Positions 5,402-54,541 of a stretch of DNA of 64,000 nucleotides are shown here, piece after piece. Position 1 is the first letter of the stretch. The number at the start of each line of letters is the position of its first letter. The notes under the pieces were generated by a model. The model was not told the DNA's origin. It saw only the letters and a list, made by a program, of their open reading frames with translations, and made no database searches. Both the position numbers and the translations under genes were made by a program. This stretch comes from a virus, in IMG/VR virus record IMGVR_UViG_3300031992_000005, positions 1-64,000 of that record; one strand, given 5' to 3'.

Positions 5402-6242
5402 TTAACATACTGAGTATTTCTTTCTTATTTTTGATAGATATGAATTCAAATGGTATATAATTAGTTTGATTGTTGGCATAATTAATGTTCACACCAAGAT
5501 CTGTTATGCGAACTTCAGAAATTGTTATATCTTTATTTTGACAAAACATTTTTCTTATTTTCTCAAACGAATCTAGATCCGTTATCGTTATACTTGCAGG
5601 TGTAGCCGCCTTTTTAATTCTTTTGTCCAATGCTCTATTCAGTTCTAAGTATTTGATTAACTTATCTTTGAACTCAGAAGAGAAGACAGAGTTATCCCTT
5701 AGTGGAACTGTACAGAAATATTTTTCATATACACGATCCTTGAGCTTAAGTTTGAGTATTAATCTAAATAAGACTCGTCCGCCTCTTATTTTTGTCAAAT
5801 GAAATTTAGTTACCTTAAGGATCTTTTGTAGTTCAACCTCTTCTAATGGTTGTGATTTTCTCAGACGATCTTTAACTAATTTAAAAAGACCTGGATTTTT
5901 ACATAAATCATTGGATAAGTCTTCATCTACAATTATTCTTTCGAAGTTAATATATTTATGTAACTTCGTTTCGATTGGATCAAGTGTTGCTAATCCAGTC
6001 TCATTACCAAGATAAATATTTATATTTTCAAATCTTGTTAGTAATTCTATAACCTTTGCTTCAAGATCTGTTTCGGTCATACCTAAGATCTCAGCTTTCA
6101 GGCTTAGTTCTGATTGATATGAGTTTAGAATATTTTTCTTAATTCTTGAATAACAACACCGTATATCACTAAATAAAATTACTTCTCTTTTTAAGAGAGC
6201 TAGGTTTTTTAATGCTAAAAATTTTTTTCTTGAATCGTTCAT
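5397..6242 (-). CDS. hypothetical protein
   Basis: 281-aa ORF. A hairpin overlaps the stop. Confidence 0.6.
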   Translation of the reverse strand: MNDSRKKFLALKNLALLKREVILFSDIRCCYSRIKKNILNSYQSELSLKAEILGMTETDLEAKVIELLTRFENINIYLGNETGLATLDPIETKLHKYINFERIIVDEDLSNDLCKNPGLFKLVKDRLRKSQPLEEVELQKILKVTKFHLTKIRGGRVLFRLILKLKLKDRVYEKYFCTVPLRDNSVFSSEFKDKLIKYLELNRALDKRIKKAATPASITITDLDSFEKIRKMFCQNKDITISEVRITDLGVNINYANNQTNYIPFEFISIKNKKEILSMLR

Positions 6243-6292
6243 AGTTACACTTAATTTATATTATACTATATTAGTAAGGATTTTCAGGGAAC

Positions 6293-6326
6293 AAAAAAAA
6301 AGAGGATTCTGTTGCCAAGCTCCTCT
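6293..6326 (-). terminator. intrinsic terminator
   Basis: AGAGGA/TCCTCT stem followed by T8 on the minus strand, downstream of the DUF1874 gene. Confidence 0.7.
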
Positions 6327-6364
6327 TTTATACTCCGTCACCTATTGTGCAGTGGTTTTTGCAC

Positions 6365-6670
6365 TCATCCCTGATGTACGGTTACCTTCACAAATGTGAA
6401 GTGAAATCCATCTGGGAGCGTCGTGGCGCCTTCTGGAAGACGTCCGCCGGTCAGCTGAGCTACAAAGATGCTGTCGCCATCTTCGAGTTTTACATTAACT
6501 CGATTACAAGGCAAACCCAGCACCCTAGCTGTATCTGCATGACCAATAGCGGATACACCATCCTTAGGAAGGCTATCTACAGGCTCTGATGTGATTACCC
6601 ACTTCTTAGTGAGGTCTAACATCTGAAATGAAAATGCATTGCACACGAATGCTTTTACGTTCTTTTCCAT
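6365..6670 (-). CDS. DUF1874 (STIV B116-like) family protein
   Basis: 101 aa. Contains NAFSFQML, SAIGHADTA and VAQLTGGRLPEGATTLP, a pattern typical of DUF1874. It has its own promoter motif and terminator and is visibly more G+C-rich than its flanks. Confidence 0.65.
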   Translation of the reverse strand: MEKNVKAFVCNAFSFQMLDLTKKWVITSEPVDSLPKDGVSAIGHADTARVLGLPCNRVNVKLEDGDSIFVAQLTGGRLPEGATTLPDGFHFTFVKVTVHQG

Positions 6671-6707
6671 AATCTGTTTGGTTTTAGTTAAACATATTAA
6701 TTACTAT

Positions 6708-6727
6708 CTCTATATATAAGGCATTTT
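6708..6727 (-). promoter_or_regulatory. phage promoter-like motif (coding-strand AAAATGCCTTATATATAGAG)
   Basis: About 40 nt upstream of the ATG at 6670. Consensus member. Confidence 0.6.
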
Positions 6728-6742
6728 CCTCCTTCAGGGAAG

Positions 6743-6771
6743 GAAAAAAAAGGCAGTGGGTTTTCACTGCC
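6743..6771 (-). terminator. intrinsic terminator
   Basis: GGCAGTG/CACTGCC stem plus T8, overlapping the micro-ORF stop. Confidence 0.7.
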
Positions 6772-6868
6772 ACCGTAGAATCGCAGCTAAGATGAATCCT
6801 GCGATTCCTATCAATAAGTAAACCGTCTCTAATTTCTCATAGAGACTTATTTCACTTCGCTTTTTCAT
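6764..6868 (-). CDS. 34-aa micro-ORF, hydrophobic peptide
   Basis: MKKRSEISLYEKLETVYLLIGIAGFILAAILRWQ. The ATG lies about 20 nt downstream of promoter motif 6888-6907, and the stop sits inside terminator hairpin 6752-6771. Below the ORF-track threshold. Confidence 0.35.
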   Translation of the reverse strand: MKKRSEISLYEKLETVYLLIGIAGFILAAILRWQ

Positions 6869-6887
6869 AATTTTTTTTGTTTTAGTT

Positions 6888-6907
6888 ATTATATTAATAA
6901 GGCATTT
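6888..6907 (-). promoter_or_regulatory. phage promoter-like motif (variant CCTTATTAATAT)
   Basis: Precedes micro-ORF 6764-6868. Confidence 0.5.
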
Positions 6908-6923
6908 CTTTTACTCCTGGAAG

Positions 6924-6995
6924 GAAAAAAATAAAGAGGTCTATATCTATCTCAGACGTTGACCTCTTGCGAGAATTACAATAGATAAAGTATGT
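6924..6995 (-). ncRNA. candidate short transcript U5 (about 65-70 nt, boundaries approximate)
   Basis: Lies between promoter motif 6998-7022 and an 8-bp hairpin (6934-6968) plus a T-rich run. No ORF. Confidence 0.35.
6934..6968 (-). repeat. hairpin module, copy A (AAGAGGTCTATATCTATCTCAGACGTTGACCTCTT on the plus strand)
   Basis: Near-identical to 7386-7419 and similar to 7281-7313. Confidence 0.85.
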
Positions 6996-6997
6996 TA

Positions 6998-7022
6998 CCA
7001 TTAATAAGGCATTAAGGGGAAG
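6998..7022 (-). promoter_or_regulatory. phage promoter-like motif
   Basis: Coding strand reads CTTCCCCTTAATGCCTTATTAATGG. Confidence 0.5.
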
Positions 7023-7110
7023 AAAAAAAATGGCCAAGGGAACCTTTAGAAATGTTTTGGGGAGTAGTGTCTAGCGTCAATGTTCGTGGTTCCCCGGCCA
7101 TCTATACAAG
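7023..7110 (-). ncRNA. candidate short transcript U4 (about 85 nt, boundaries approximate)
   Basis: A 13-bp interrupted closing stem (ATGGCC-GGGGAACC with GGTTCCC-TT-GGCCAT) encloses about 43 nt and is followed by T8. No ORF. Confidence 0.4.
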
Positions 7111-7113
7111 ATT

Positions 7114-7136
7114 CATTTATAAGGAATTAAGGGGAT
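7114..7136 (-). promoter_or_regulatory. phage promoter-like motif
   Basis: Coding strand reads ATCCCCTTAATTCCTTATAAATG. Confidence 0.5.
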
Positions 7137-7138
7137 AT

Positions 7139-7247
7139 AAAAAAAAAAGGGGTCTACTCTCACAAGCGAACCCCCTTGAATGTTGTGGTGGAAAAATTAT
7201 TTAAAAAACCACCACACTCTAATTGAATAATGAGCTTTACCAACATG
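7139..7247 (-). ncRNA. candidate short transcript U3 (about 100 nt, boundaries approximate)
   Basis: Two hairpins: GTGGTGG/CCACCAC at 7185-7215 and GGGGT/ACCCC at 7149-7174 plus T10. The only ORF is a 30-codon one starting inside the promoter motif. Confidence 0.35.
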
Positions 7248-7249
7248 TT

Positions 7250-7272
7250 CATATATAAGAGTTTAAGGGGAT
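7250..7272 (-). promoter_or_regulatory. phage promoter-like motif
   Basis: Coding strand reads ATCCCCTTAAACTCTTATATATG. Confidence 0.5.
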
Positions 7273-7352
7273 AAAAAAAAAGAGATCTATATCTTCTCAG
7301 ACTTTGACCTCTTTACAAATAAATCATGAATAATACTGAATTCAAACTAAAA
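7273..7352 (-). ncRNA. candidate short transcript U2 (about 70-80 nt, boundaries approximate)
   Basis: Lies between promoter motif 7356-7378 and hairpin module copy C plus T9. No ORF longer than 5 codons. Confidence 0.35.
7281..7313 (-). repeat. hairpin module, copy C (diverged)
   Basis: AGAGATCTATATCTTCTCAGACTTTGACCTCTT: two substitutions and a 1-nt deletion relative to copies A and B. Confidence 0.8.
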
Positions 7353-7355
7353 CTA

Positions 7356-7378
7356 CATATATAAGGAATTAGGGGGAT
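7356..7378 (-). promoter_or_regulatory. phage promoter-like motif
   Basis: Coding strand reads ATCCCCCTAATTCCTTATATATG. Confidence 0.5.
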
Positions 7379-7450
7379 AAAAAAAAGAGGTCTATATCTA
7401 TCTCAGACGTTGACCCCTTAAATACCAAAAAAAGTAGTTAAATATTTTAA
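7379..7450 (-). ncRNA. candidate short transcript U1 (about 60-70 nt, boundaries approximate)
   Basis: Lies between promoter motif 7454-7477 and hairpin module copy B plus T8. No ORF. Confidence 0.35.
7386..7419 (-). repeat. hairpin module, copy B
   Basis: AGAGGTCTATATCTATCTCAGACGTTGACCCCTT, 1 mismatch to copy A. Confidence 0.85.
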
Positions 7451-7453
7451 TAC

Positions 7454-7477
7454 CTATACATAAGGCATTGAGGGGAT
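7454..7477 (-). promoter_or_regulatory. phage promoter-like motif
   Basis: Coding strand reads ATCCCCTCAATGCCTTATGTATAG. Confidence 0.5.
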
Positions 7478-7514
7478 AAAAAAAGAAAGCTCCACCCTCA
7501 CGGGCAAAGCTCTC
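7478..7514 (-). terminator. intrinsic terminator of the Clp ATPase gene
   Basis: GAGAGCT/AGCTTTC stem (one G-U pair) followed by T7 on the minus strand. Confidence 0.6.
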
Positions 7515-7527
7515 AAAGAATAATATG

Positions 7528-10197
7528 CTACTCTTCAACAAGTTCTACTTTTTCTATTGGAGTGACTTTAGTAGTTTCTCCTTCCAGGGTTGCTGAGAAC
7601 TTCGTAACCCCTGGATGTTTTAGCATTACCTCGCTAATAGGAGATATGATATACTTTTCAATATTTCTACTTAAGTCTCTAGCTCCATAGAGAGGATTAC
7701 ACTTACTTATGGTATAATCTCTAAGGGCATTATTTACCTTAATATATACCTTGAATTTGCTCAACTTCTTTTTTATGTCAAGCATCTCGATATTATAGAT
7801 CTTGATTAGATCTTGTGTAGATAATTCATTGAATACTACAATCTTATCAAGTCTATTCAGGAACTCTGGTCTAAACTGTTTTTCTACGGCCTTCATAATG
7901 ACAGCCTTATTTTTCAAAAGCTTATCTTCTCGGTTAGGAGCACCAAAGCCGATGTTCTTATTATTCTTAAGTTCCTTTGTTCCGGTATTTCCTGTAAATA
8001 TAATTACACAGTTGGAGAAATCAACTTCCTCTCCATTTGCCAATTTACATCTACTTGTTTCGAGAATTCCAAGCCAGATGTCATATAGGCTAGGGTGAAT
8101 TTTATCCACTTCGTCAATTAGAATGACGGAGTGCTTTTTTCTTCTCACTTTTTCAAAGATACAATCCTCTCCATATCCTACATAACCTGCAGGACTACCG
8201 ATGAGTTTTGACAATGAATGTTCCTCTTTAAATTCACCTCCATCGATCTTTACAAGATTGTCCAATGAACCGAAGAATATCTTAGCAACTTCTTGTGAAA
8301 TAAGAGTTTTTCCTACACCACTTGGTCCAACAGCCAATATACTGCAAAGAGGCTTTTTCTCATTCCTTAATCCTAAGAAATTTAGCTGTAGTGCTTGAGT
8401 AATTGTATCGATTGCTTCTTGCTGACCAATAACTCTCTTTTCGAGTTCGGCTTTCATGTGAGCAATTTTCTCTCGATCTGTTTGATTTATACTATCAACA
8501 GGTACTCTGGAAATACAACTTACTGCCAGTGCTACATCTGGAATAGTAACCTCTGGCCAAGTTTTCTTTTGATTTCTTTGCTTGTTCAAGGATTTTTCCT
8601 CAGCTTCAATGAGATCTTCGATTTCTGCACATTGATCTTTTAATTCTGTACCCTTATCGAAATCTCTATCTTCTTGAACAGCCTTTATCTTTTCCTTCAC
8701 CAGTTCTTGGAGTTTTTTCTCCAATTCATCCTTCTTTTCAGATACTAGTTCTACTCTTCGTAGGCTAACAATGGCTAGTGATAGATCTAGTACATCTACA
8801 GCTTTGTCTGGAAAGTTCTTATCTGTTATATAACGATCACTCCATCTTACGCAAGCCTCAATGACTTCCTTACTAACCTTTACTCTATGGAACGATTCAT
8901 ATTGACTTTGTATACCTTTCAGAATACGGATTGTTTCTTCCGCAGTTGGAGTAGTTACGTCGACTTGTGTGAATCTTCGATTAAGTGCTGCGTCTTTTTC
9001 GATAAACTTTCTATATTCATCGTTTGTAGTAGCACCAATACACTGGAATTCGCCTCTACTGAGATAAGGTTTAAGGATATTTGCCCCATCACCATTTCCA
9101 CTAGAACCACCATTACCTACTAAGTTATGAAGTTCATCGATGTAAATGATAATATCCTTGTTCTTTATGACCTCCTCAATGATTCTTTGAAGTCTCTCTT
9201 CGTATTCACCTCTATACTTAGTACCTGCTACTAAGTTATTGAGGTTCAGCGAGTAGATCTTCTTATTCTTAAGTCTTTCTGGAACATTACCTTTTACAAT
9301 TTGTTGAGTCAATAGTTCAACAATACTGCTTTTTCCAGTTCCAGCTGCACCTACCAAAGCTACATTAGCTTTCTTTCTCTTTGAGAGAATTTCAATAATG
9401 GACTGTACATAGCCATCTCGTCCAATCACTGGATCATATTTTCCTTCCGCAGCTTCTTTATTCATATTCTGCGCAAATTGATCTAGATATGGAGTTGTGC
9501 TATCCTTATCCATCATGTTTTCCATTATAGGTCTATTATCTCCGTATCTCTCGAAGTCATCTGGATCGTCGTCACTATCTTCTTTATCAGCATCGATGAA
9601 TTCAGCTTTATCATCGTTTTCCGTGACTTTCTTAGCAACGTCTTTAAGAATATTCATCAAGTCACTGAAATTCTTTATGCCTTTATCGTATTTTTTCTCC
9701 TGCCTTTTCTTATTTCCATTAGATTCTTCAAAGGCTGTAAAGAAATCCTGTGGAGTAATTCCTAGTGGAGCAAACATTTCACTCACTAGTTCATCGTGCT
9801 TAAAGATAGCATAGAATATAGTATCTAATTCTACTATTTCTTCTCTATTTTCCAACCCTTTCACAAAATCCATTGCCTCACTAATAACTCCATCCAGTAG
9901 AATACTGCATGGAATAGTATCATCTTCAGTCTTATCTTGGATTTCCTTTGGAATAACTTCAGAGACAGTTTTCTCTCTTTTTTCCAAGTATTCTAAAAGA
10001 CTGTAGACCTTGTTTTCAATTTTGTGAAGAAATCTTCCTACAGCCGGACAATCCCCACCTTCACCTAAGTACTTGTTTATTGCAATATGTACGAAAGTTT
10101 CCGGTATTATCCACTTATAGTGATTTTTCTCCGTGCGTTCTTTACAACGTTTTAATATTTCTTGAACTTCTTCTGAAATAATAATGTGTTTTGACAT
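7528..10197 (-). CDS. ClpC/ClpA/ClpB-family double AAA+ ATPase (unfoldase)
   Basis: 889 aa with a Clp_N-like N-terminus. AAA-1 has GAAGTGKSS plus IIIYIDELH. A short coiled-coil linker follows. AAA-2 has GPSGVGKT plus VILIDEVDK, and GARDLSR lies near the C-terminus. Confidence 0.85.
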   Translation of the reverse strand: MSKHIIISEEVQEILKRCKERTEKNHYKWIIPETFVHIAINKYLGEGGDCPAVGRFLHKIENKVYSLLEYLEKREKTVSEVIPKEIQDKTEDDTIPCSILLDGVISEAMDFVKGLENREEIVELDTIFYAIFKHDELVSEMFAPLGITPQDFFTAFEESNGNKKRQEKKYDKGIKNFSDLMNILKDVAKKVTENDDKAEFIDADKEDSDDDPDDFERYGDNRPIMENMMDKDSTTPYLDQFAQNMNKEAAEGKYDPVIGRDGYVQSIIEILSKRKKANVALVGAAGTGKSSIVELLTQQIVKGNVPERLKNKKIYSLNLNNLVAGTKYRGEYEERLQRIIEEVIKNKDIIIYIDELHNLVGNGGSSGNGDGANILKPYLSRGEFQCIGATTNDEYRKFIEKDAALNRRFTQVDVTTPTAEETIRILKGIQSQYESFHRVKVSKEVIEACVRWSDRYITDKNFPDKAVDVLDLSLAIVSLRRVELVSEKKDELEKKLQELVKEKIKAVQEDRDFDKGTELKDQCAEIEDLIEAEEKSLNKQRNQKKTWPEVTIPDVALAVSCISRVPVDSINQTDREKIAHMKAELEKRVIGQQEAIDTITQALQLNFLGLRNEKKPLCSILAVGPSGVGKTLISQEVAKIFFGSLDNLVKIDGGEFKEEHSLSKLIGSPAGYVGYGEDCIFEKVRRKKHSVILIDEVDKIHPSLYDIWLGILETSRCKLANGEEVDFSNCVIIFTGNTGTKELKNNKNIGFGAPNREDKLLKNKAVIMKAVEKQFRPEFLNRLDKIVVFNELSTQDLIKIYNIEMLDIKKKLSKFKVYIKVNNALRDYTISKCNPLYGARDLSRNIEKYIISPISEVMLKHPGVTKFSATLEGETTKVTPIEKVELVEE

Positions 10198-13504: not shown

Positions 13505-15111
13505 TTTATCATTTTAGCTGATAGATCAAACTCTAATTCTAGCTCGGTGAATCTTTCTTTAAGTATATTCTTCTTTAGAATTTCCGTAAGTTCATTATTA
13601 TGGGTGGCATATTCTACTACCTTATTTACGTTTATCGTAAGATGAACATACTCTTTTGGTTTAGATTTTGTACCAAGATTAATTACTTCAAATGAAGATA
13701 CTGCCGCAGGATTACCATTTCTAGCATCGTTGACCTGCTTCATTAATATTTCGCCTAATGGAGTTTTTCCAAAAAGCGATTCAATAGTATTCTTAGCTGC
13801 TTTTTGATCTACCTTTCCTTTACCATATCCTCCTACAGCTTTTACTCTTTGACAACTTTTTTTGGTTGAAGTTTGGGTATCATGATATCTATAATATTGT
13901 TCCCACCATTTAATAAAGTTATCAAAAGACTCGGTTATGAAGGATTTATCAAATGTCTTGATCTGTTCAATAATTATGTCATTTATTGGAATATCAAAAT
14001 ATTTGAAGAATTCTTCATAGTAAGAGTAAGACAATGCATTAGGATCCATTATATATTTACAAAATAGCTTGAATGTATTCACTACATTAGCATCCATTGT
14101 CTGTTGTTCTGATATATATAATCCTCTGCCACCAAACAATGAATAATCACTATTGTAGTAGATTATCAGGAGCTCTTTTATAATGACTTCAATGTATTGT
14201 ATTAATGTTTCCTTAAGCATTTCCGGAATTTCTTTTACTCCAGAAATACTTGAGAATGCATAAGGTTCTAGGGCTCGATAGAAATATTGGAAATTTATAT
14301 GAGCACTACCTAATAACGGTTGTCTTGCAATATCACATGCATTTGTAGTCAGGGTTTCCCAAAAATCTTCTATCCTAGGTGAATCATTTTCTAGGATTTT
14401 TCCACTGTCTACCATACTCTGAATGTTCGTCTTATACTTTATAGCATAAGGATCGTTTTCATCAAAGTAACTCAGTTTAAATACATCTGATACTGTTTTT
14501 GCTTCTTTCGGTAGTTTATTTACGAAAAGATATGCAACCTCTACTTTATCTTCACTTAAGAAGTTGGCACAGTATGGTTGTGCTTTTTTGGCAAACACTG
14601 TACCTAAGAAGAAAAGTGTTTCCTTTTCAGAGTCATATCTATGTCCAGGAATGAATTTCTTCGTCTTCTTATAGGACTTACAACTAGCTAGTCTTGTCAT
14701 CTCATCAAAGCAATCATTATATTCAGACATCTCTGGTGAGACAAGCTTAATATCTGTGCAAGCATCATCATCGCTAAATGCGATTTCAAATCTTTCTTGA
14801 AAATGTCCTTTTTCTAAGGTGCATTCTGTCAAAAGATGGCCCATGTTTTCATTATTAACATAATTGCCTACGCCTACCCAGGAATTACCTAGTTTAATTT
14901 CTATATTACGCGAATTGTTAAACCTAGCTTCAAGACTATCTATACTAAAGTTTTCGATTTCACCTAGATCTATCGCTTTAGCAGAAATACCTTGAAGATT
15001 TAGATTAGAAATGAATTTTGAATTCTTTTTGTTTTCTACTGGAACAAAATATACTAAATTTCTTTCATTTTGAAATAGTAAGTCATAGTCTGTAACTAAT
15101 CTCCACTTCAT
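13501..15111 (-). CDS. hypothetical protein
   Basis: 536-aa ORF with a 4-nt overlap onto infA. Confidence 0.65.
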
Positions 15112-20642: not shown

Positions 20643-21227
20643 CTAATTTTTTACCCAATCTTGAAGCTCAAGCATTAGGTTCATACTTTTCAGTGTTTTC
20701 TTCAATTCATCTACGATCATAACAATCAGGTCGATTGAAAGAAATCTCTCTTCTTCGTCCTCAGGTTTTTCGTCGATTCCAACGTACAGTTGAAGACCTC
20801 TCTTCTTATCGTAAGAGAGTTGGGCCGAGTATGTACGAGTAGGGGATTCCTGCTTACGTTCTCTGATATAGATAGTGCTTGACCAAGATACCTTGAATTC
20901 ACTTGAATGGGGTTCTTCTTTTTTCTCAGGATTGAATACATAATTCAATCCTCTGGAAATCAAACTATATTTAATGATAAACTTTGGGGTTATAACATTA
21001 ATCCCCGACTTAGTTACTCTTAGATAAGTACTGTCAAAATCTTTGACTGCACCTAATTTGTCGCCAATTGGAATCATTTCACCATCTTCGTGTTTCATCA
21101 ATTCCGACAGACCTTCATCTAATATGAGTGGCATTGCAGCTGCCTTTTTCATTTCGAGGCCTTCTTCTACTAATGTAATAAATTTTGTTTTTCTCATTTT
21201 TTTTTTGAAATTTAAAAAGTTATACAT
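20643..21227 (-). CDS. hypothetical protein
   Basis: 194-aa ORF flanked by a terminator-promoter cassette. Confidence 0.6.
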   Translation of the reverse strand: MYNFLNFKKKMRKTKFITLVEEGLEMKKAAAMPLILDEGLSELMKHEDGEMIPIGDKLGAVKDFDSTYLRVTKSGINVITPKFIIKYSLISRGLNYVFNPEKKEEPHSSEFKVSWSSTIYIRERKQESPTRTYSAQLSYDKKRGLQLYVGIDEKPEDEEERFLSIDLIVMIVDELKKTLKSMNLMLELQDWVKN

Positions 21228-21240
21228 ATATTTTTATTAT

Positions 21241-21266
21241 CTCTATACATAAGGCATTAATAGGAT
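21241..21266 (-). promoter_or_regulatory. phage promoter-like motif
   Basis: Coding strand reads ATCCTATTAATGCCTTATGTATAGAG, upstream of 20643-21227. Confidence 0.6.
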
Positions 21267-21268
21267 AA

Positions 21269-21304
21269 GAAAAAAAAAGAAGTCTTTGACGGGCTTCTTT
21301 TTTC
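21269..21304. terminator. hairpin flanked by A-run and T-run
   Basis: AAGAAGTCTTTGACGGGCTTCTT, downstream of 21323-21955. Confidence 0.6.
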
Positions 21305-21322
21305 AGTTTATGTATTGTTCTT

Positions 21323-21955
21323 TTATTCTGCTACAGTTTTGAAGAAATCTGCTACAGCTACAGTCATGTTCTTTACCCAAGTGTTAGCATCTGGTAATAG
21401 TTTACTCCCCAGAGGTATCCACTCTGTAATATCCGTTATTCCCATTCGAATATTAAATCCATTGCCACCGAGATGTTTCTCGAGCTGTAAGAGCACATTT
21501 ATAGTTACTTCACCCCTTGCTTCATAGAGAAGCATGAACTCTGACCCTCTTAATCTTATTCCGTTCTTTTTTACGTTGGTGAGTTCATTGTTATACTCTC
21601 GGTGCAGAGGATATAAGGAATACTGTATACTTTTATTTGACTGAGTATCTAGCAGTTCTATGTCAATTCTATATCCGTTCTTCACTGGTACGATTATCTG
21701 GAGGTCTTTGAGTACCAGACGATCCGTTCCAAAGAACTTTTTCAAATAATGCCCCACTATTTTGTTAGGAGCCTTTATCTCACTATATCCGCTTGATATA
21801 ATAAGATCAAGTATTTTCTTCACCATTTTTTCACAAAACTTCTCATCCTCAGAGAAAAATTTCGTGAACATCTCATCTGCTAAGAATGGGATGTTTCTTT
21901 TTTCTTTCAACTCTATAGAGAGCTGGTGATTAATTAATCCTTTAAATTCTGCCAT
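21323..21955 (-). CDS. hypothetical protein, tandem paralogue 1
   Basis: 210 aa, similar in length and in motifs (IPF.A, LLQ.EK...GF.IR.G) to 22079-22714. It has its own promoter motif and terminator. Confidence 0.65.
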   Translation of the reverse strand: MAEFKGLINHQLSIELKEKRNIPFLADEMFTKFFSEDEKFCEKMVKKILDLIISSGYSEIKAPNKIVGHYLKKFFGTDRLVLKDLQIIVPVKNGYRIDIELLDTQSNKSIQYSLYPLHREYNNELTNVKKNGIRLRGSEFMLLYEARGEVTINVLLQLEKHLGGNGFNIRMGITDITEWIPLGSKLLPDANTWVKNMTVAVADFFKTVAE

Positions 21956-21995
21956 TTCTTATTTTTTTTTTGTGTTAAACAAATAATAAAATTAT

Positions 21996-22021
21996 CTCTA
22001 TGTATAAGGCATTAATAGGAT
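21996..22021 (-). promoter_or_regulatory. phage promoter-like motif
   Basis: Differs from 21241-21266 at two positions. Upstream of 21323-21955. Confidence 0.6.
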
Positions 22022-22025
22022 AAGT

Positions 22026-22056
22026 AAAAAAAAGAAGTCTTTGACAGGCTTCTTTT
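22026..22056. terminator. hairpin flanked by A-run and T-run
   Basis: AAGAAGTCTTTGACAGGCTTCTT, a near-copy of 21269-21304. Confidence 0.6.
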
Positions 22057-22078
22057 TATTAATTAGATGAGTAGAAAA

Positions 22079-22714
22079 TTAAGAATTTTCTTCTACGGAA
22101 ATTTCAGCTATTCTTTTAAATAACTTCACTAAACTATTAGTTACGTGATGAATTCCGGCCTTTATTGCTAATTTAGTCGCTAGTCCGATACCTTCAAGCT
22201 CTTTCTTTGAAAGACCGAATCTAATATCAAATCCAGTTTTCTTTTTTTCGATCTGAAGAAGTGACATTACTTTTGTAGTTTCAATTCCAAATTCTACGAC
22301 GAGAATAAATTCACTCTTTCTACTACCATCATTTGTTCTTGAATAATCAAACTCCTTAAAGCAAGGATAAACTTCAAGTTTCACTTCTTTATCCGGATTT
22401 TTAACTGCCGAAAGTCCAATTGCAAGGTAATTCCCATTCTTTTCTAGGGTTCTAATTCTTAGATTTTTCAACTTATCTATTTCTAGATCAATGAGAGAAA
22501 ATACTCCCATTAGGTTAGATTCAACTACCTTAAATGCTTCACTCTGACAAGTTTTTTCAATATATGAGAAAAATTTATCAATGAATTGATCTATTTGGTC
22601 TTTATCTTTCCCAAAAAATTGATTTAACTTTTGTTCTGCGTAGAATGGGATAATATTTCCACCCTCTACTTTTACTTTTCTAAAACTAGTAATAAAATCT
22701 TTTTCTAAATCCAT
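22079..22714 (-). CDS. hypothetical protein, tandem paralogue 2
   Basis: 211 aa, paralogous to 21323-21955. It has a near-identical flanking regulatory cassette. Confidence 0.65.
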   Translation of the reverse strand: MDLEKDFITSFRKVKVEGGNIIPFYAEQKLNQFFGKDKDQIDQFIDKFFSYIEKTCQSEAFKVVESNLMGVFSLIDLEIDKLKNLRIRTLEKNGNYLAIGLSAVKNPDKEVKLEVYPCFKEFDYSRTNDGSRKSEFILVVEFGIETTKVMSLLQIEKKKTGFDIRFGLSKKELEGIGLATKLAIKAGIHHVTNSLVKLFKRIAEISVEENS

Positions 22715-22752
22715 TTGATTTTTTTTTATTAATTAATAATAAATTTAATTAT

Positions 22753-22776
22753 CTCTATGTATAAGGCATTCACTGG
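22753..22776 (-). promoter_or_regulatory. phage promoter-like motif
   Basis: Plus strand reads CTCTATGTATAAGGCATTCACTGG. Upstream of 22079-22714. Confidence 0.6.
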
Positions 22777-22780
22777 AAAT

Positions 22781-22805
22781 AAAAAAGTCCGCCATAATAG
22801 CGGAC
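22781..22805 (-). terminator. intrinsic terminator
   Basis: GTCCGC/GCGGAC stem plus T6 on the minus strand. Confidence 0.7.
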
Positions 22806-25014: not shown

Positions 25015-25293
25015 ATGAAGAACAACACAGAAGATACTTCTTCACAGCAGGAAGTAAAGAACGAAAACGAGAACGTGAACGCGAACAACAACAAGAAAAG
25101 TGGAAAACGCATCGTAAGGGATATACTGTGGTTTGTTACAGGAGCAGCCGTAGGTTGCAGTGGCACGCTGCTGTACAACAAGTCTCGTAGCGGCAAAGGA
25201 ACAGAAGAACCAAAGCCGCAGACTCAGTCACAGCAGTACAACAACAACACTGGAAACAACCGCCCATTCAATGGCAACAACGGTCAGCGATAG
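25015..25293 (+). CDS. small membrane protein, YtxH-like (tentative)
   Basis: 92 aa. WFVTGAAVGCSGTLLYNKSRSGKG resembles the YtxH motif. Termini are N/Q-rich. Promoter motif upstream, terminator at 25325-25353. Confidence 0.5.
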   Translation: MKNNTEDTSSQQEVKNENENVNANNNKKSGKRIVRDILWFVTGAAVGCSGTLLYNKSRSGKGTEEPKPQTQSQQYNNNTGNNRPFNGNNGQR

Positions 25294-25324
25294 ATAATAT
25301 TCCGACGAGAGCGAATCCATGTAG

Positions 25325-25353
25325 AGCGATCTTTAGGGATCGCTTTTTTTTTT
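25325..25353 (+). terminator. intrinsic terminator
   Basis: AGCGATC/GATCGCT stem plus T10. Confidence 0.75.
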
Positions 25354-25364
25354 CTTTCACATAA

Positions 25365-25387
25365 CCCCTCAAAGCCTTATATATAAG
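25365..25387 (+). promoter_or_regulatory. phage promoter-like motif (CCCCTCAAAGCCTTATATATAAG)
   Basis: Immediately follows the terminator and precedes micro-ORF 25408. Confidence 0.55.
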
Positions 25388-25407
25388 AATAATTAAATTA
25401 TAATAAT

Positions 25408-25509
25408 ATGGAAGAAGAAGAGAAAAAAGAATTCAGCGAGAATCTAATTTATTTTATTGCATTTTTAATCTCAATTGCAACTATAAGTTATTATGGAAGA
25501 AAAAAATAA
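25408..25509 (+). CDS. 33-aa micro-ORF, one TM
   Basis: MEEEEKKEFSENLIYFIAFLISIATISYYGRKK. It lies about 25 nt downstream of promoter motif 25365-25387. Confidence 0.3.
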   Translation: MEEEEKKEFSENLIYFIAFLISIATISYYGRKK

Positions 25510-25648
25510 AGATTTCTCGGATTATGTAGTGGACGGTTTGGATTACCTCACAGAGGAATTATTCCCTACAGTTTTTAGAATTTTGAAAAAAGCAACGCCC
25601 GTTTTAGTAGGAATCGCTATTGGAGCTTGGGCATCATCGGAAAAGTAA
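25493..25648 (+). CDS. 51-aa small protein, C-terminal TM
   Basis: MEEKNKDFSDYVVDGLDY...PVLVGIAIGAWASSEK. It overlaps the previous micro-ORF and is followed by terminator 25645-25669. Confidence 0.35.
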   Translation: MEEKNKDFSDYVVDGLDYLTEELFPTVFRILKKATPVLVGIAIGAWASSEK

Positions 25649-25669
25649 CCAGAAATGGTTACTTTTTTT
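25645..25669 (+). terminator. intrinsic terminator
   Basis: GTAACC/GGTTAC stem plus T7, followed by an ATCCTTTTAAAACCTTAC cassette variant. Confidence 0.7.
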
Positions 25670-25745
25670 ATCCTTTTAAAACCTTACTCGTGTAATTGAA
25701 AAAGAAAATTTATTTATTTATTAACAATTTATATATTATTATTTT

Positions 25746-25946
25746 ATGAATCAACATTTTAATGGTAGGCGCAACAGATTTTATGGCGCAAACGACAGTA
25801 GAGGTGGTGGAGGCTTAAAAATGCTTTATCAGTGGGCCTTCAAAGTTGGAGAAGGATTAACCGATGTAGGGTTAATTGTGATGGTAGCTACAGTTATAGT
25901 AGCTATTTGTGACAGTTTTATTAATTCAATCTTAAATAAGAAATGA
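25746..25946 (+). CDS. small membrane protein
   Basis: 66 aa with a C-terminal hydrophobic helix. Confidence 0.45.
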   Translation: MNQHFNGRRNRFYGANDSRGGGGLKMLYQWAFKVGEGLTDVGLIVMVATVIVAICDSFINSILNKK

Positions 25947-26131
25947 AAATGGACTTTAAACTTTTTACAAACGAGTGGGCATCTCGTCCTTTATTTGGAA
26001 AGGATAGACAACTCGAACAGCTAATAAAGCACGCTGGTGGTAAGTTAACAATAGTTCTTGTGATATTCACAGCATTGATATCTATCATCCGGCTTTCTGC
26101 AATGAATAGTGATAGCTGCGATAGATCATAG
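25943..26131 (+). CDS. small membrane protein
   Basis: 62 aa with one hydrophobic helix and a 4-nt overlap onto the previous ORF. Confidence 0.45.
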   Translation: MKMDFKLFTNEWASRPLFGKDRQLEQLIKHAGGKLTIVLVIFTALISIIRLSAMNSDSCDRS

Positions 26132-26208
26132 CTCCTTGAAGATAATATATAATATATAGGAGGTATGATCTGTTTTATTTCGTTTTCATAAATCTAAGAT
26201 AAATAAAA

Positions 26209-27432
26209 ATGAAAAACCAAAAACAGATTTTAAGGACATTAACTTTGTTAATTACCTTATTAGTCATATTGATTGTAGGGTATTTTTCTTGGAGAAAATT
26301 AAAAAAGCTTTCCCAAAAGAAAACTACATACAAGGAAGATGAAAATTTCTTTAGAAAGAGTCACCTAGACCTAATAAATGAGAAAAAAAACAAAGAGGAA
26401 AATAAGGAAAAGGTAGATGAAGTTTCTGAAGAAGATAATAAAAAAACAACCGAAACAAAGAAGAAAAGAGCGGAATTAATTGATAACTTAAGTTTGGATA
26501 TAGCTGAAGCAGTTCTGGACGAAGGATTCGTGAGTCTAAACGTTCATACAAAGCCTAAAGATCCAGAGACTTCTCTGAGATGGGCTTTCGTAAGACTCGA
26601 GGTTGCAGAATATGAAGGCTATGGAAGTGATCCAGGAGGAATTCAGGTTCTCTTGGATTTCAGAATCCCAAAAGGAGCATATCCACGGTTTAATAAATTT
26701 AGTCGAGGAATTACTCCGATACCAAACGAATTTGATTTTATAAAAACATTATTGGGCGAAAGAAAGAAGTCAGAAAACGGAGAAATAGTCGAAGTCAGTG
26801 GCGGTTGGAAAGAGCGCTTTGAAGAAAGACTGAAATCCTTCGTTAGTGATGATTTGAAGTTGATTTATAATCCTGGTAAGAGTCCTAAGAAGGTACTTCT
26901 TCTTGAGGTAACATTTACAGAACAGTGTAATGGTAAATCAATTAAAAGATCTGAAACGATAGAATGCCCAAGACCACTTTGGGAAAATAATATATTTGCA
27001 GATAGACAGGTAACTGATAAGGATGTAAATCCTAATTCGGAAAAAGGTTTGTATTTCAACATTATGAGAATCTTAGAAAAAGATCGTAATAATGAAGGAA
27101 TACTTATTGATGATGTTTATCTTTCAAATAGAAACATTAAAAATCTTAGAATTGTTGGTGCATACTTTTCTATTAGATTCACGTATTTCTGGCAAAGATC
27201 AGAACGGAATATTTCCGGAATAAATATGGAGCAGCTAATGGATTTATTGCATGCAATATTTACAGATGAAAGCTATGCAGTATCGGTAGGTGAATATAAG
27301 TTCCGGTGGACAAAACTGGCATTGATCGACCCGTATACAAATTGGACTGATGAAGAGTGTAAAGAATGTGCATTCAGGGAGTCAGTTGAGGGCGATGATG
27401 AAGATTACTTAAATTCAAAACCATACTTCTAA
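26209..27432 (+). CDS. membrane-anchored hypothetical protein
   Basis: 407 aa with an N-terminal TM (LTLLITLLVILIVGYF) followed by a charged K/E-rich linker. Confidence 0.65.
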   Translation: MKNQKQILRTLTLLITLLVILIVGYFSWRKLKKLSQKKTTYKEDENFFRKSHLDLINEKKNKEENKEKVDEVSEEDNKKTTETKKKRAELIDNLSLDIAEAVLDEGFVSLNVHTKPKDPETSLRWAFVRLEVAEYEGYGSDPGGIQVLLDFRIPKGAYPRFNKFSRGITPIPNEFDFIKTLLGERKKSENGEIVEVSGGWKERFEERLKSFVSDDLKLIYNPGKSPKKVLLLEVTFTEQCNGKSIKRSETIECPRPLWENNIFADRQVTDKDVNPNSEKGLYFNIMRILEKDRNNEGILIDDVYLSNRNIKNLRIVGAYFSIRFTYFWQRSERNISGINMEQLMDLLHAIFTDESYAVSVGEYKFRWTKLALIDPYTNWTDEECKECAFRESVEGDDEDYLNSKPYF

Positions 27433-50388: not shown

Positions 50389-50420
50389 GAATAGAGCCCG
50401 AAAGGACTCTATTTTTTTTT
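50389..50420 (+). terminator. intrinsic terminator
   Basis: ATAGAG/CTCTAT stem plus T9. Confidence 0.65.
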
Positions 50421-50480
50421 GTCTCCAAAGATTAAACGTTTATTTTAAAAGCTTTAGTTCTAATTCACCGTTTCCGCCTG

Positions 50481-50512
50481 AGGTTCTATACATACATATG
50501 TATAGATTACCT
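50481..50512. other. strong isolated hairpin
   Basis: AGGTTCTATACAT, loop ACAT, then ATGTATAGA-TT-ACCT: 13 bp with a 2-nt bulge. It lies in the 170-nt spacer between two terminators that face each other. Confidence 0.7.
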
Positions 50513-50590
50513 GGCATCTTCAGTACGAGCTTCACCCGTATACGATTTATCAGACCTAAAGTGTTAAAATTGTTTCTATAAAGGTTACAA

Positions 50591-50640
50591 ATAAGAAAAG
50601 AGAACCTTAACTGAAATTGTTGTGTGTGTTAAAGTTCTCT
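50591..50640 (-). terminator. intrinsic terminator of the 58-aa ORF
   Basis: AGAACCTTAA/TTAAAGTTCT stem (1 mismatch) followed by a T-rich run on the minus strand. Confidence 0.55.
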
Positions 50641-50648
50641 TCTCTCCA

Positions 50649-50825
50649 TTAGAGTTTGTCTGTCACCGTTTTCAGGTGAAACAAACAGTACGTTGTCATC
50701 AAGAACCAGATACCAATTGAAATCTGGTTCTCACAGAATGGCCGGTAATCGGCCAAAAGAAGTGCTAATCCAAAAAACATTCCTATGAAGGAAATAATTC
50801 GGATTATTTTAACTAATTTTTTCAT
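50649..50825 (-). CDS. 58-aa small membrane protein
   Basis: MKKLVKIIRIISFIGMFFGLALLLADYRPFCENQISIGIWFLMTTYCLFHLKTVTDKL. Promoter-like motif upstream (about 50877-50890), terminator at 50591-50640. Confidence 0.45.
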   Translation of the reverse strand: MKKLVKIIRIISFIGMFFGLALLLADYRPFCENQISIGIWFLMTTYCLFHLKTVTDKL

Positions 50826-51055
50826 GTCGCTAATTTTTTTTTGTTATAATTTCTATAAATAGGTTACCTATATCTTCTCTATATAGGATTTATGATCTCC
50901 GATTATAGTTCACTGTGAGTATTTTTCTATTTATACTCTGACCTCTTCGGTCTTTAGATTCCTATAATAGTCAGGCTGTAACCTAACCACCGGATATCAC
51001 GCTCTATTACTTCAATGATTTGGATTTACAGATCCTCCTCATCTTTTCATAGTTC

Positions 51056-51071
51056 CTCAGGACGTCCTGAG
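51056..51071. repeat. 16-nt perfect palindrome CTCAGGACGTCCTGAG
   Basis: Read directly from the sequence. It contains an AatII-like GACGTC core. Confidence 0.9.
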
Positions 51072-51178
51072 TACTGCGCTTTGATCGAGACCCTGCCAAA
51101 GATTCTTCATCTTCAGGTTTCTCGTCCCGTAGATAATCTCTTCGATTATCCAAAATTTTGTATAAAAATTATTTTAAA

Positions 51179-51221
51179 ATACCCCAAACGTACCTCAATA
51201 TTTGTGGGTACTGCGGGGTAT
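51179..51221. other. two-tier hairpin
   Basis: ATACCCC/GGGGTAT (7 bp) enclosing GTACC/GGTAC (5 bp). Confidence 0.7.
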
Positions 51222-51497
51222 GTGTCTATAAATAATAGTGTTATTGTCTTCTTTAACACTTTAACCTTTTATACGCTCTGAGCCAATACATCAATCGGGT
51301 ATAACAACTTCCCTTTTTCCCAATCTCCTGGTAAGATTGATGCGCTATGCTATTTTCTGTTCGCTCAGACGAACCCAAGTACTATCTATCTTGGCTGTCC
51401 TTATATAGGTCCCCCATAGCCACCTTCAGTATGCCTATATAAGTTAGTAGTATACGTTTCAACTACATAGTATCGGTATATATTTATTCATATATAA

Positions 51498-51511
51498 CCT
51501 TATATATAAGG
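51498..51511. promoter_or_regulatory. palindromic (potentially bidirectional) promoter motif CCTTATATATAAGG
   Basis: The motif reads the same on both strands. Two further plus-oriented variants lie at 51399-51409 and 51431-51443. Confidence 0.5.
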
Positions 51512-51574
51512 CTTTCACCAGATAACAAAAAGGAAAAAAATTTCGGTCTATTTCCTTAAGAATGTACTAAAATT

Positions 51575-54510: not shown

Positions 54511-54541
54511 TCCCCTTAAATTCTTATTTATATATGATAAC
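54511..54541 (+). promoter_or_regulatory. plus-strand phage promoter-like motif inside a minus-strand gene block
   Basis: TCCCCTTAAATTCTTATTTATATATGATAAC. It forms an inverted repeat (TTAAGGG/CCCTTAA) with the minus-direction motif serving 52978-54471. Confidence 0.5.

Follow-up and report, generated by a model that had tools for sequence, protein, structure and literature searches.

A tandemly reiterated, gene-less module of terminator-like hairpin and promoter-like box in huge-phage DNA

Layout of the array

The window considered here is a stretch of 64,000 nucleotides (nt) of DNA from a very large gut or rumen phage (IMG/VR record IMGVR_UViG_3300031992_000005, positions 1 to 64,000), of which 91.5% is coding. 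On its minus strand, a spacer of 857 nt separates the stop codon of a Clp ATPase gene (7528–7530) from the start of a DUF1874 gene (6670). The analysis confirmed that this spacer consists of one small regulatory module, made up of a hairpin, a T-run, a box and a short leader, repeated in tandem with no genes between the modules. From the Clp terminator onward the order is a box directly after the terminator, ~35 nt of AT-rich leader, a hairpin, a T-run and the next box. Seven promoter-like boxes, the number noticed in a first-pass annotation of the window, lie within 6711–7517, five of them full and two core-only variants. The first five units (U1 to U5; 99, 106, 136, 115 and about 95–105 nt) contain only box, AT-rich leader, hairpin and T-run, and the last two boxes front an open reading frame (ORF) of 34 aa and the DUF1874 gene, which is AcrIII-1-like. 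The features are listed below in minus-strand order; R1 is a covariance model of the hairpin family to which most of these hairpins belong.

7528..10197, minus strand: gene (ORF) for a ClpB/ClpC-like double AAA+ ATPase of 889 aa; Pfam AAA_2, AAA_lid_9, AAA and ClpB_D2-small, PHROG 4871 at 1.3e-185; upstream boundary of the array.
7477..7517, minus strand: Clp terminator and first module hairpin; stem of 13 bp with GUGA loop, then T-run; RNAfold -20.4 kcal/mol, z -4.84; match in the terminator scan; R1 44.4 bits.
7377..7475, minus strand: U1, 99 nt; box 7475–7455 (CCCCTCAATGCCTTATGTATA), AT-rich leader ~7454–7420, family hairpin and T-run 7420–7379; R1 46.1 bits (7379–7420).
7271..7376, minus strand: U2, 106 nt; box 7376–7356, leader, diverged family hairpin and T-run 7314–7274; R1 41.4 bits.
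7135..7270, minus strand: U3, 136 nt; box 7270–7250, leader with an extra hairpin (GTGGTGG...CCACCAC), family hairpin (GUGA loop) and T-run 7179–7139; z -2.59; R1 43.3 bits.
7020..7134, minus strand: U4, 115 nt; box 7134–7114, long-range stem of ~16 bp (~7103–7028) around a 43-nt loop, T-run; non-family hairpin; z -2.85; no R1 match.
6925..7019, minus strand: U5; box 7019–6999, leader, family hairpin 6968–6934, interrupted T-run 6933–6925; R1 40.6 bits (6928–6969).
6744..6924, minus strand: U6; variant box CCTTCC..N..ATGCCTTATTAATA 6924–6892, A-rich 5' untranslated region (5'UTR), 34-aa ORF 6868–6764, non-family hairpin 6771–6752, T-run 6751–6744.
6671..6743, minus strand: seventh cassette; variant box 6743–6711 and the 40-nt 5'UTR of the DUF1874 gene, the ATG being 41 nt past the box end.
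6365..6670, minus strand: DUF1874 / STIV B116-like gene, 101 aa, bounding the array downstream; candidate AcrIII-1-type ring nuclease.

Folded with RNAfold, each of U1 to U5 ends in a hairpin of -12 to -20 kcal/mol followed by a T-run of 7–10. A simple terminator scan caught only two of these five hairpins, the loops or stems of the others lying beyond the limits of the scan. The units fit the form of intrinsic terminators, with a stable stem-loop and a U-run directly after it on the transcribed strand, and termination itself is predicted. The first-pass annotation placed a hairpin and T-run 60–110 nt after each of the first six boxes; in the sixth unit the terminator is instead ~145 nt from the box. 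The U5 hairpin contains a 32-nt stretch identical to that of U1 (an identical 27-mer lies at 6938–6964 and 7389–7415). Hairpin, T-run and box are contiguous in every window unit and also at the large-phage loci described below. When the window was searched with R1 together with 9.8 kb of extra flank (~74 kb in all), only the five array copies were found, at 40–46 bits, the best score elsewhere being 21.5 bits. Terminators elsewhere in this phage belong to other types, so that the array looks like a local reiteration of the Clp-terminator module.

The full box has the consensus CCCC(T/C)nAAnnCCTTATnnAT(G/A) and opens each of U1 to U5; the two variant boxes keep just an ATGCCTTATwwATA core and end at 6892 and 6711. 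A degenerate box pattern has 25 matches in the window against 4.9 +/- 2.1 expected, a count reached by none of 100 shuffles. A stricter 20-nt form has nine matches, all of them intergenic (intergenic DNA being 9.2% of the window) and five of them within the array. Where boxes front genes, for example at 21244, 21999, 22756, 24973, 40929 and 42496, the ATG follows 17–48 nt downstream, and the leaders are A-rich and without a Shine–Dalgarno sequence. Boxes at a divergent intergenic region (24905, 24961) have no preceding terminator; the box is therefore separable from the hairpin and positionally promoter-like.

The 3' end of the box, TAnnnnTG (e.g. TATATATG, TATTAGTG, TATAGTTG), agrees at 4–5 of 6 specified positions with TAnnTTTG, the -7 element of the Bacteroidota primary sigma factor. 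Bacteroidota promoters combine this -7 element with TTTG at -33 and have a median 5'UTR of 32 nt (PMC7366714); leader lengths and A-richness of the gene-fronting boxes match the Bacteroidota mRNAs in that comparison. A sigma-70 promoter scan of the window gave eight sites against 7.6 in shuffles, none of them at the boxes. The position of the box suggests that it is a promoter. A Bacteroidota host for the window phage is also suggested by a 526-aa window protein that is 39–49% identical to proteins of Mahaphage genomes of 634–735 kb, which are predicted to replicate in Bacteroidetes (PMC7162821).

Cassettes elsewhere in the window had been thought to front genes without exception. Nearly all do so; a plus-strand box at 54512–54532 and the reverse halves of two palindromic boxes near 25373–25390 and 51496–51513 do not. 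The palindromic boxes (GCCTTATATATAAGGC) read as a box on both strands and may be bidirectional promoters. The plus-strand box is a full one and lies in a 228-nt spacer between two minus-strand genes, with no plus-strand ORF downstream; it may belong to an orphan or antisense transcription unit.

None of U1 to U5 has an ATG-initiated ORF with an A-rich leader. Their only ORFs of at least 20 aa are one of 30 aa in U3 (7160–7252, starting inside the box) and one of 29 aa in U4 (7012–7101, running through the terminator); both begin in or just past the -7-like box, lack an A-rich leader and run into the terminator hairpin, and the original view that these units hold no plausible ORF is borne out. 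Recoding of TAG or TGA, which could hide ORFs, was rejected by inspection of the sequence: any recoded ORF in the units would begin within the -7-like box and continue through a terminator, and the flanking genes are normal under the standard code. A tRNA and tmRNA search of the array found none, and Rfam gave nothing at gathering threshold, the best sub-threshold family being BTnc231 (24.3 bits against 80.4). Compared by blastn and tblastx with the remaining window and with 166 related loci, the unit bodies showed no similarity, and an origin as gene remnants was rejected.

The 34-aa ORF of U6, a hydrophobic peptide in the first-pass annotation, has a normal A-rich leader and a hydrophobic helix at the C-terminus; the unit is identical in close variants. 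This ORF is plausibly coding, since similar cassette-fronted mini-ORFs occur at 25.4–26.2 kb. There, on the plus strand at 25293–26209, a string of tiny ORFs with predicted hydrophobic helices (e.g. 33 aa from 25409) lies behind a cassette, and cassette-fronted mini-genes seem to be common in this phage. The predicted transcript of the 34-aa ORF (6745–6892, minus strand) folds into three hairpins (z -5.80 against shuffled sequences) and may act as RNA besides, or instead of, encoding a peptide.

The DUF1874 gene downstream is a candidate for an AcrIII-1-type ring nuclease directed against type III CRISPR, at marginal scores. Its protein reaches 23.4 bits with Pfam PF08960, under the cut-off of 26 bits, matches PADLOC Csx16 at 2e-4, and aligns with the archaeal-virus structures 2x4i, 2j6b, 6scf and 2j85 of the Protein Data Bank (E values of 7e-4 to 0.03) with the IGH..T motif aligned. 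We take DUF1874 to be the AcrIII-1 family of viral ring nucleases, which degrade cyclic tetra-adenylate. If the assignment is right, the array heads an anti-defence gene; this would be compatible with early expression and would not by itself account for the array.

The module in relatives and in other huge phages

The window matches a 185-kb ENA contig, and one of its proteins is also recorded on a contig of the 0.2–1 Mb class. Three contigs with a 99% identical Clp protein (L003–L005) keep the array, with few substitutions and some changes in T-run length. In L002, a short Logan contig (SRR7634052), U1 runs straight into the 3' end of U5 (1180–1250) and U2–U5 are missing. The junction falls within the 32 nt that the U1 and U5 hairpins share exactly, and the contig end is Illumina adapter sequence. 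L002 is either what recombination between two modules would give or the collapse of a k-mer assembly; Logan assemblies use k = 31. Another Logan contig, L007, stops ~142 nt past the Clp stop, which by arithmetic is at the U1 copy of the 32-nt repeat, so that, where a sample contains the full array, the assembly graph may break at this point rather than jump.

The next-closest contigs (L009, L010; Clp 61% identical) keep the upstream gene order; in them Clp is immediately followed by a gene on the opposite strand, and the array is absent. At 15021–15705 of L009/L010 there is an ORF-free, GC-richer spacer of ~680 nt with diverged box-like motifs (CCTCATATAT, CTTTATTAAT). Clp homologues of intermediate identity are absent from the protein collection, where identity is either 99% or at most 61%. 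As the close variants differ at few positions and intermediates are lacking, covariation among orthologues of U1–U5 is impossible to assess. Deposited phages gave no DNA match for 6300–7900, the Clp protein as bait brought out no relatives in IMG/VR, and motifs taken from the Clp alignment, being generic to ClpB/C, returned only ~40% identical cellular homologues from metagenome contigs.

A search of IMG/VR with the box itself found it in contigs of ~140–350 kb, with a hairpin and T-run before it and a gene after it. One of these contigs, L051 (326 kb), has five consecutive gene-less units at 8001–8543, and its hairpin motif led to a lineage of ~200–350 kb contigs, here called the ~340 kb lineage. 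At least 15 contigs of that lineage have eight or nine gene-less units of 89–118 nt, which together occupy the ~1.0–1.1 kb gap separating one and the same pair of genes. Both in L051 and in the ~340 kb lineage, the last box precedes the same structured leader and a homologous gene of 152–166 aa; the two arrays are therefore at orthologous positions, although the flanking gene is only 77% identical. With the window included, the ORF-less reiteration of the module occurs in three lineages, and gene-less module arrays are a recurrent trait of this phage group.

Within the ~340 kb lineage there is also a second locus, where family hairpins and two to four boxes at 110–133 nt spacing are interspersed with genes of 175–195 aa ahead of a 195-aa gene. 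Its coordinates and occurrences are as follows.

L124 368–783: second locus; also L091, L122, L130, L139, L141, L144, L152 and L156 1640–3240.

The gene downstream of the long array was found at 19 IMG/VR loci. All examined contigs of the lineage (at least 15; 17 loci have a downstream gene 92–100% identical) and L051 (75%) have the array. In two contigs in which this gene is 48–49% identical (L392, L393), only one box is present along with the structured leader, and both the array and the family hairpin are missing. These array-free loci and the 61% Clp relatives of the window mark the arrays as lineage-specific expansions, which are retained at moderate divergence, with turnover of the leaders, and are not found in more distant genomes.

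The leader of the 152–166-aa gene forms a hairpin of purine-rich and pyrimidine-rich arms (GGGAGGAG...CTCTTCCC, or GGGGAG...CTCTCC) with a T-run just before the ATG. It is retained even in the array-free lineage of 48% identity, the automatic alignment being out of register for this distant pair, and may be an attenuator or a translational element. It lies at the following positions.

L128 4965–5056: structured leader.
L156 7959–8049: structured leader.
L051 8564–8654: structured leader.
L393 2453–2525: structured leader.

The proteins that flank the other arrays gave no informative matches in Pfam or PADLOC. Matches of a three-box pattern in bacterial genomes were discarded as analogues; they are chance singletons or CCTTAA-rich satellites of Bacteroidota genomes, without hairpin, T-run or R1 match. 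The satellites, in L271 (Echinicola), L298 (Pedobacter), L261 (Prolixibacteraceae) and L255, L259 and L288 (contigs of Bacteroidales metagenome-assembled genomes), are near-identical tandem repeats of 59–114 nt, rich in CCCTTAAnnCCTTAA-like motifs and superficially box-like.

Twenty-six hairpins, from L128, L156 and L051 together with the Clp terminator, U1, U2 and U3 of the window, were aligned in register. Over the 12-bp stem, 98.4% of cells are standard pairs, a share that drops to 76% after shuffling and to 47% or less with the partner slid; 11 of the 12 pairs have changed on both sides, and the observed values were reached by none of 500 shuffles. One G.U pair is invariant in all 26 hairpins, and 22 of them also have a second, U.G pair. 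Loops are GNRA, in some cases with one additional base, and this type is preserved where GUGA has changed to GAGA. On the opposite strand the G.U would become a C.A mismatch, which makes the hairpin structure specific to the sense RNA, and at the large-phage loci all 89 matches of the covariance model are on the gene-sense strand. One hairpin family, constrained in structure and in sequence, is therefore common to the window and the large-phage lineages.

The leaders are another matter. Between L128 and L156, whose flanking proteins are 92–97% identical and whose fourfold-degenerate sites are 80% identical (85/106), the leaders are 88% identical at aligned positions and have many indels; the hairpins are 93% and the boxes 90% identical. 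Between L051 and L128 (fourfold-degenerate sites 71% identical), and from unit to unit, leaders are mostly unalignable. Boxes and hairpins are strictly maintained, or selected, and the constraint on leaders is weak. The best leader similarities link U1 of the window, unit 2 of L128 and unit E of L051 with the 5'UTR of the DUF1874 gene (AGATAnTAATTAATATnTTTAACTA); since the leaders of empty units resemble this real 5'UTR, an empty unit would amount to a promoter, a 5'UTR-like leader and a terminator. Against 87 translation-initiation regions of the phage, the window leaders showed no complementarity in excess of shuffles (z -1.0 to +0.35), and antisense targeting of phage translation starts was dropped as an explanation, the leaders doing no better than shuffled ones.

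An alignment of 12 orthologous arrays of the ~340 kb lineage shows how the arrays change. L116, L124 and L157, from different samples, each lack exactly one unit, and in L156 two units are fused inside their leaders. The first unit (unit 0) exists as two unrelated alleles between near-identical flanks, and one box is a mosaic whose two variable segments occur in all four combinations. The whole-unit indels and the mosaic boxes indicate recombination between modules.

Known systems and competing readings

The best-supported part of the first-pass annotation is its comparison with PeSLs, the promoter-early-stem-loop cassettes of T4-like phages. These are composite terminator/promoter cassettes, clustered in hyperplastic regions, where they mediate deletions and exchanges (Arbiol et al. 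2010; Comeau, Arbiol and Krisch 2014, PMC4122927). Here too a stem-loop lies immediately upstream of an early-type promoter, by prediction, and a 5'UTR follows, all in one composite intergenic motif; many intergenic copies stand between small accessory genes; and the copies are recombination-competent, with indels and exchanges between close relatives that in this case comprise the unit indels, the unit-0 alleles and the mosaic boxes. The differences are equally clear. The PeSL promoter is of the sigma-70 type (TTGACA or TTTACW, N17, TATAAT-like), whereas the box reads CCCYTnrAnnCCTTAnnnnTG with its Bacteroidota-type -7-like end. There is no sequence homology, and the phage belongs to another group, its best protein relatives being the 634–735 kb Mahaphage-type genomes. 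PeSLs flank ORFs, and neither ORF-less runs of 5–9 cassettes nor invariant hairpin features are described in PMC4122927. Recombination between two PeSLs removes everything between them and leaves a single cassette (PMC4122927); it explains the loss and homogenisation of units, and not strings of cassettes with unique leaders of ~40 nt. A simple deletion scar, as had been entertained for the array, does not fit this outcome or gene-less arrays that recur at a conserved locus in other huge phages. By analogy, the module is closest to T4-type PeSLs in its presumed working and evolution, yet is no member of the PeSL family.

Bacterial tandem genes for small RNAs (sRNAs) offer a second comparison, and because of them the statement that no similar system has been described was too strong. 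NsiR1 forms a tandem sRNA gene array in Nostoc/Anabaena (Ionescu et al. 2010, as cited in PMC4030482), and tandem sibling sRNAs include OmrA/B, PrrF1/2 and AbcR1/2 (PMC4211561). The likeness is in head-to-tail units of ~60–110 nt with their own promoter and intrinsic terminator and no ORF, here by sequence prediction; in OmrA/B the ends are conserved and the middle differs. The bacterial RNAs are cellular, experimentally detected and conserved paralogues with known targets, whereas the present units are viral, have only the 3' hairpin conserved and are known from sequence alone. No account of these arrays, or of the module, in huge Bacteroidota phages came up in the literature searches.

Phage systems, too, have features in common with the array. 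Phage lambda pR'-tR' is a single unit in which the 6S leader awaits antitermination by Q through the qut site. Like the units described here, it places a phage promoter, a short non-coding leader and an intrinsic terminator directly before the genes controlled; lambda has one unit with Q, whereas here 5–9 units stand in series and no antiterminator was identified. ToxI is the RNA repeat array of a type III toxin-antitoxin system. Along with Racr (PMC10651486), it exemplifies short hairpin RNAs or RNA repeat arrays used by phages as decoys or antitoxins, and the window array adjoins a candidate anti-CRISPR gene; the units here are of ~100 nt with individual promoter-like boxes, not repeats of 28–47 nt. 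A repeat-spacer reading of the CRISPR/Racr kind (repeats of 23–50 nt with unique spacers) was rejected, the conserved block of ~65 nt holding the promoter-like box and the hairpin, searched as one exact pattern, being unmatched; the neighbouring genes were not all specifically screened for cas. A ToxIN-like type III toxin-antitoxin system (repeats of 34–45 nt) was rejected as well: the units are of 89–136 nt with boxes of their own, and Pfam and PADLOC found no ToxN or defence match downstream.

The reading that we prefer is that a composite punctuation module has been reiterated in tandem and yields short hairpin-ended RNAs, with a role that depends on copy number ahead of an early gene. We give it a probability of about 0.55, and less to any particular role; the likelihoods attached to the competing readings overlap and are not meant to sum to one. 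The module would comprise the family terminator hairpin, the T-run, the box ending in the Bacteroidota-type -7-like TAnnnnTG and a short AT-rich 5'UTR-like leader, and would play in a huge phage of the Bacteroidota type the part that PeSL cassettes play in T4-like phages. It appears to punctuate small genes over most of the genome and to have been reiterated here, without ORFs, from the Clp terminator onward. Each unit is predicted to be a self-contained transcription unit read by the host RNA polymerase; that transcripts start at the box, stop at the hairpin and are made early is an inference, as is any function. The predicted product is a non-coding RNA of 70–115 nt whose 5' tail evolves freely and whose conserved hairpin has a GNRA cap and the G.U pair. 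Homologous recombination between modules would enlarge, shorten and homogenise the array. As promoter and hairpin are maintained and the leader sequence is not, the function probably lies in the copy number of promoter plus hairpin ahead of the early gene, in this case a candidate anti-CRISPR. The copies might set the dose of the hairpin RNA, titrate a factor binding to box or hairpin, or permit conditional read-through; sequence-specific riboregulation is unlikely.

Several points weigh against this reading. The absence of arrays in the 61% Clp relatives and in the 48–49% relatives speaks for long-term dispensability, which fits a neutral by-product as well as it fits an accessory function, and gene conversion rather than selection could keep the boxes and hairpins intact. 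The deletion in L002 could be an assembly artefact, a 32-nt repeat being one base above the k-mer size. The array is not perfectly uniform, the hairpins of U4 and U6 being outside the family. The box fits the Bacteroidota -7 element at only 4–5 of 6 positions, and its conserved CCCYTnrAnnCC half is without a known counterpart in the host consensus, which makes a phage-specific polymerase or factor possible.

The strongest competitor, possible and still clearly the less probable of the two, is that the array is a neutral by-product: unequal crossing-over or slippage of recombinogenic modules would have left a functionless, satellite-like run, tolerated in very large genomes, with gene conversion maintaining the boxes and hairpins. 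The number of units varies among strains and lineages (5, 8, 9), more distant relatives lack arrays, leaders are indel-tolerant and barely more conserved than fourfold-degenerate sites, mosaic boxes point to conversion or recombination, and the searches gave no target, homologue or Rfam family. Against this, every unit in the three lineages has an intact box and hairpin, the latter with compensatory changes and the invariant G.U pair. Since one change to G-C or A-U would make this pair more stable, a merely structural or decaying element should have lost it. Furthermore, the array stays at the same locus across flanking genes that are 77% identical despite the turnover of leaders, and ~0.6–1 kb of junk would be unusual in a window so largely coding.

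A bolder reading is tentative, and we would sooner bet against it than on it: the arrays would hold many gene copies for a phage small RNA of a new class. Function would reside in the constant hairpin, with its GNRA cap and invariant G.U, and the 5' tail would be a freely evolving spacer. Bulk expression from stacked early promoters would titrate or redirect an RNA-binding factor of host or phage (a defence nuclease, a termination or antitermination factor, an RNase) or gate the adjacent anti-defence gene, the size of the array acting as a dosage knob in huge Bacteroidota phages.

That the array is a leader for conditional termination is unlikely. The units would work in the manner of lambda pR'-tR', by attenuation or antitermination, with initiation constitutive and termination following a short leader: a phage factor that recognises the hairpin would permit read-through, and the stacked promoters would feed the downstream gene as a timer or amplifier. 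The array is directly upstream of a gene in the same orientation in three of three cases examined, the leader nearest the gene in the large phages has a hairpin and T-run just before the ATG, and the hairpin has features beyond a plain stem, namely the invariant G.U and the GNRA-type tetra- or pentaloop, which are reminiscent of lambda boxB. However, no antiterminator homologue was identified, the gene-proximal leaders of the window (U6, U7) are without such a hairpin, one module would suffice for the same on/off logic, and relatives have the homologous gene behind a single box.

A battery of trans-acting sRNAs for regulation or anti-defence, one of the explanations first offered for the array, is improbable, whether the RNAs are target-specific or mimics. 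In the first case the variable leader would serve as seed on a scaffold formed by the hairpin; in the second the hairpin would imitate a host RNA, for example a CRISPR repeat, in the manner of Racr. A fully palindromic 12-bp stem is unlike a CRISPR repeat with its handles, and the exact pattern of the window hairpin, searched as a single pattern, had no match in 185,579 bacterial and archaeal species genomes and none in IMG/VR. In its favour, a variable 5' part, a constant 3' hairpin and an own promoter and terminator are the canonical layout of intergenic sRNAs (PMC7366714), the adjacent gene is a candidate anti-CRISPR ring nuclease and RNA anti-CRISPRs are known in phages (PMC10651486). The leaders tell the other way: they are AT-rich, of low complexity, indel-tolerant, barely above synonymous-site conservation and turned over between lineages, and they show no excess complementarity to the 87 translation-initiation regions.

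Finally, an element acting at the level of DNA, either a transcription-activated replication origin (T4 oriF/oriG and the T7 primary origin combine a promoter with an AT-rich unwinding element) or a set of packaging or protein-binding repeats, would suit the repeated promoter-like boxes and AT-rich segments of ~40 nt and is very improbable: there is no DnaA-box cluster (a single site with one mismatch in 6000–8000, at 7816 inside the Clp gene), no skew inflection and no change of gene orientation at the array, the conserved G.U pairs tie the hairpin to RNA and to one strand, and array-free relatives must still replicate.

Other loci and significance

Two further loci of the window deserve mention. 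On the minus strand at 20643–22800, three consecutive genes (194, 210 and 211 aa; none with a Pfam match) follow one another, and the first two of their cassettes share a nearly identical terminator (AAAAGAAGCCYGTCAAAGACTTCTTTT), the third hairpin being different; this looks like a locally duplicated unit of gene plus module. At 50420–51500, between a terminator near 50395–50420 and the palindromic box at 51496–51513, ~1.1 kb of relatively high GC has no ORF of at least 90 aa and no Rfam match at gathering threshold. A large non-coding RNA, or genes that have decayed or been recoded, may lie there.

Huge Bacteroidota phages are abundant in the gut and rumen and are uncultured, and to our knowledge essentially nothing is known of their transcription signals. 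The array is a real, reproducible, recurring and unexplained feature of such phages. Its composite punctuation module can be used for annotating early transcription units in their genomes. The module also appears to drive modular recombination and would then be an independent instance of the PeSL strategy in an unrelated group of phages. If the hairpin is indeed a decoy or regulatory RNA made beside an anti-CRISPR-like gene, the arrays would represent a new type of phage non-coding RNA system.

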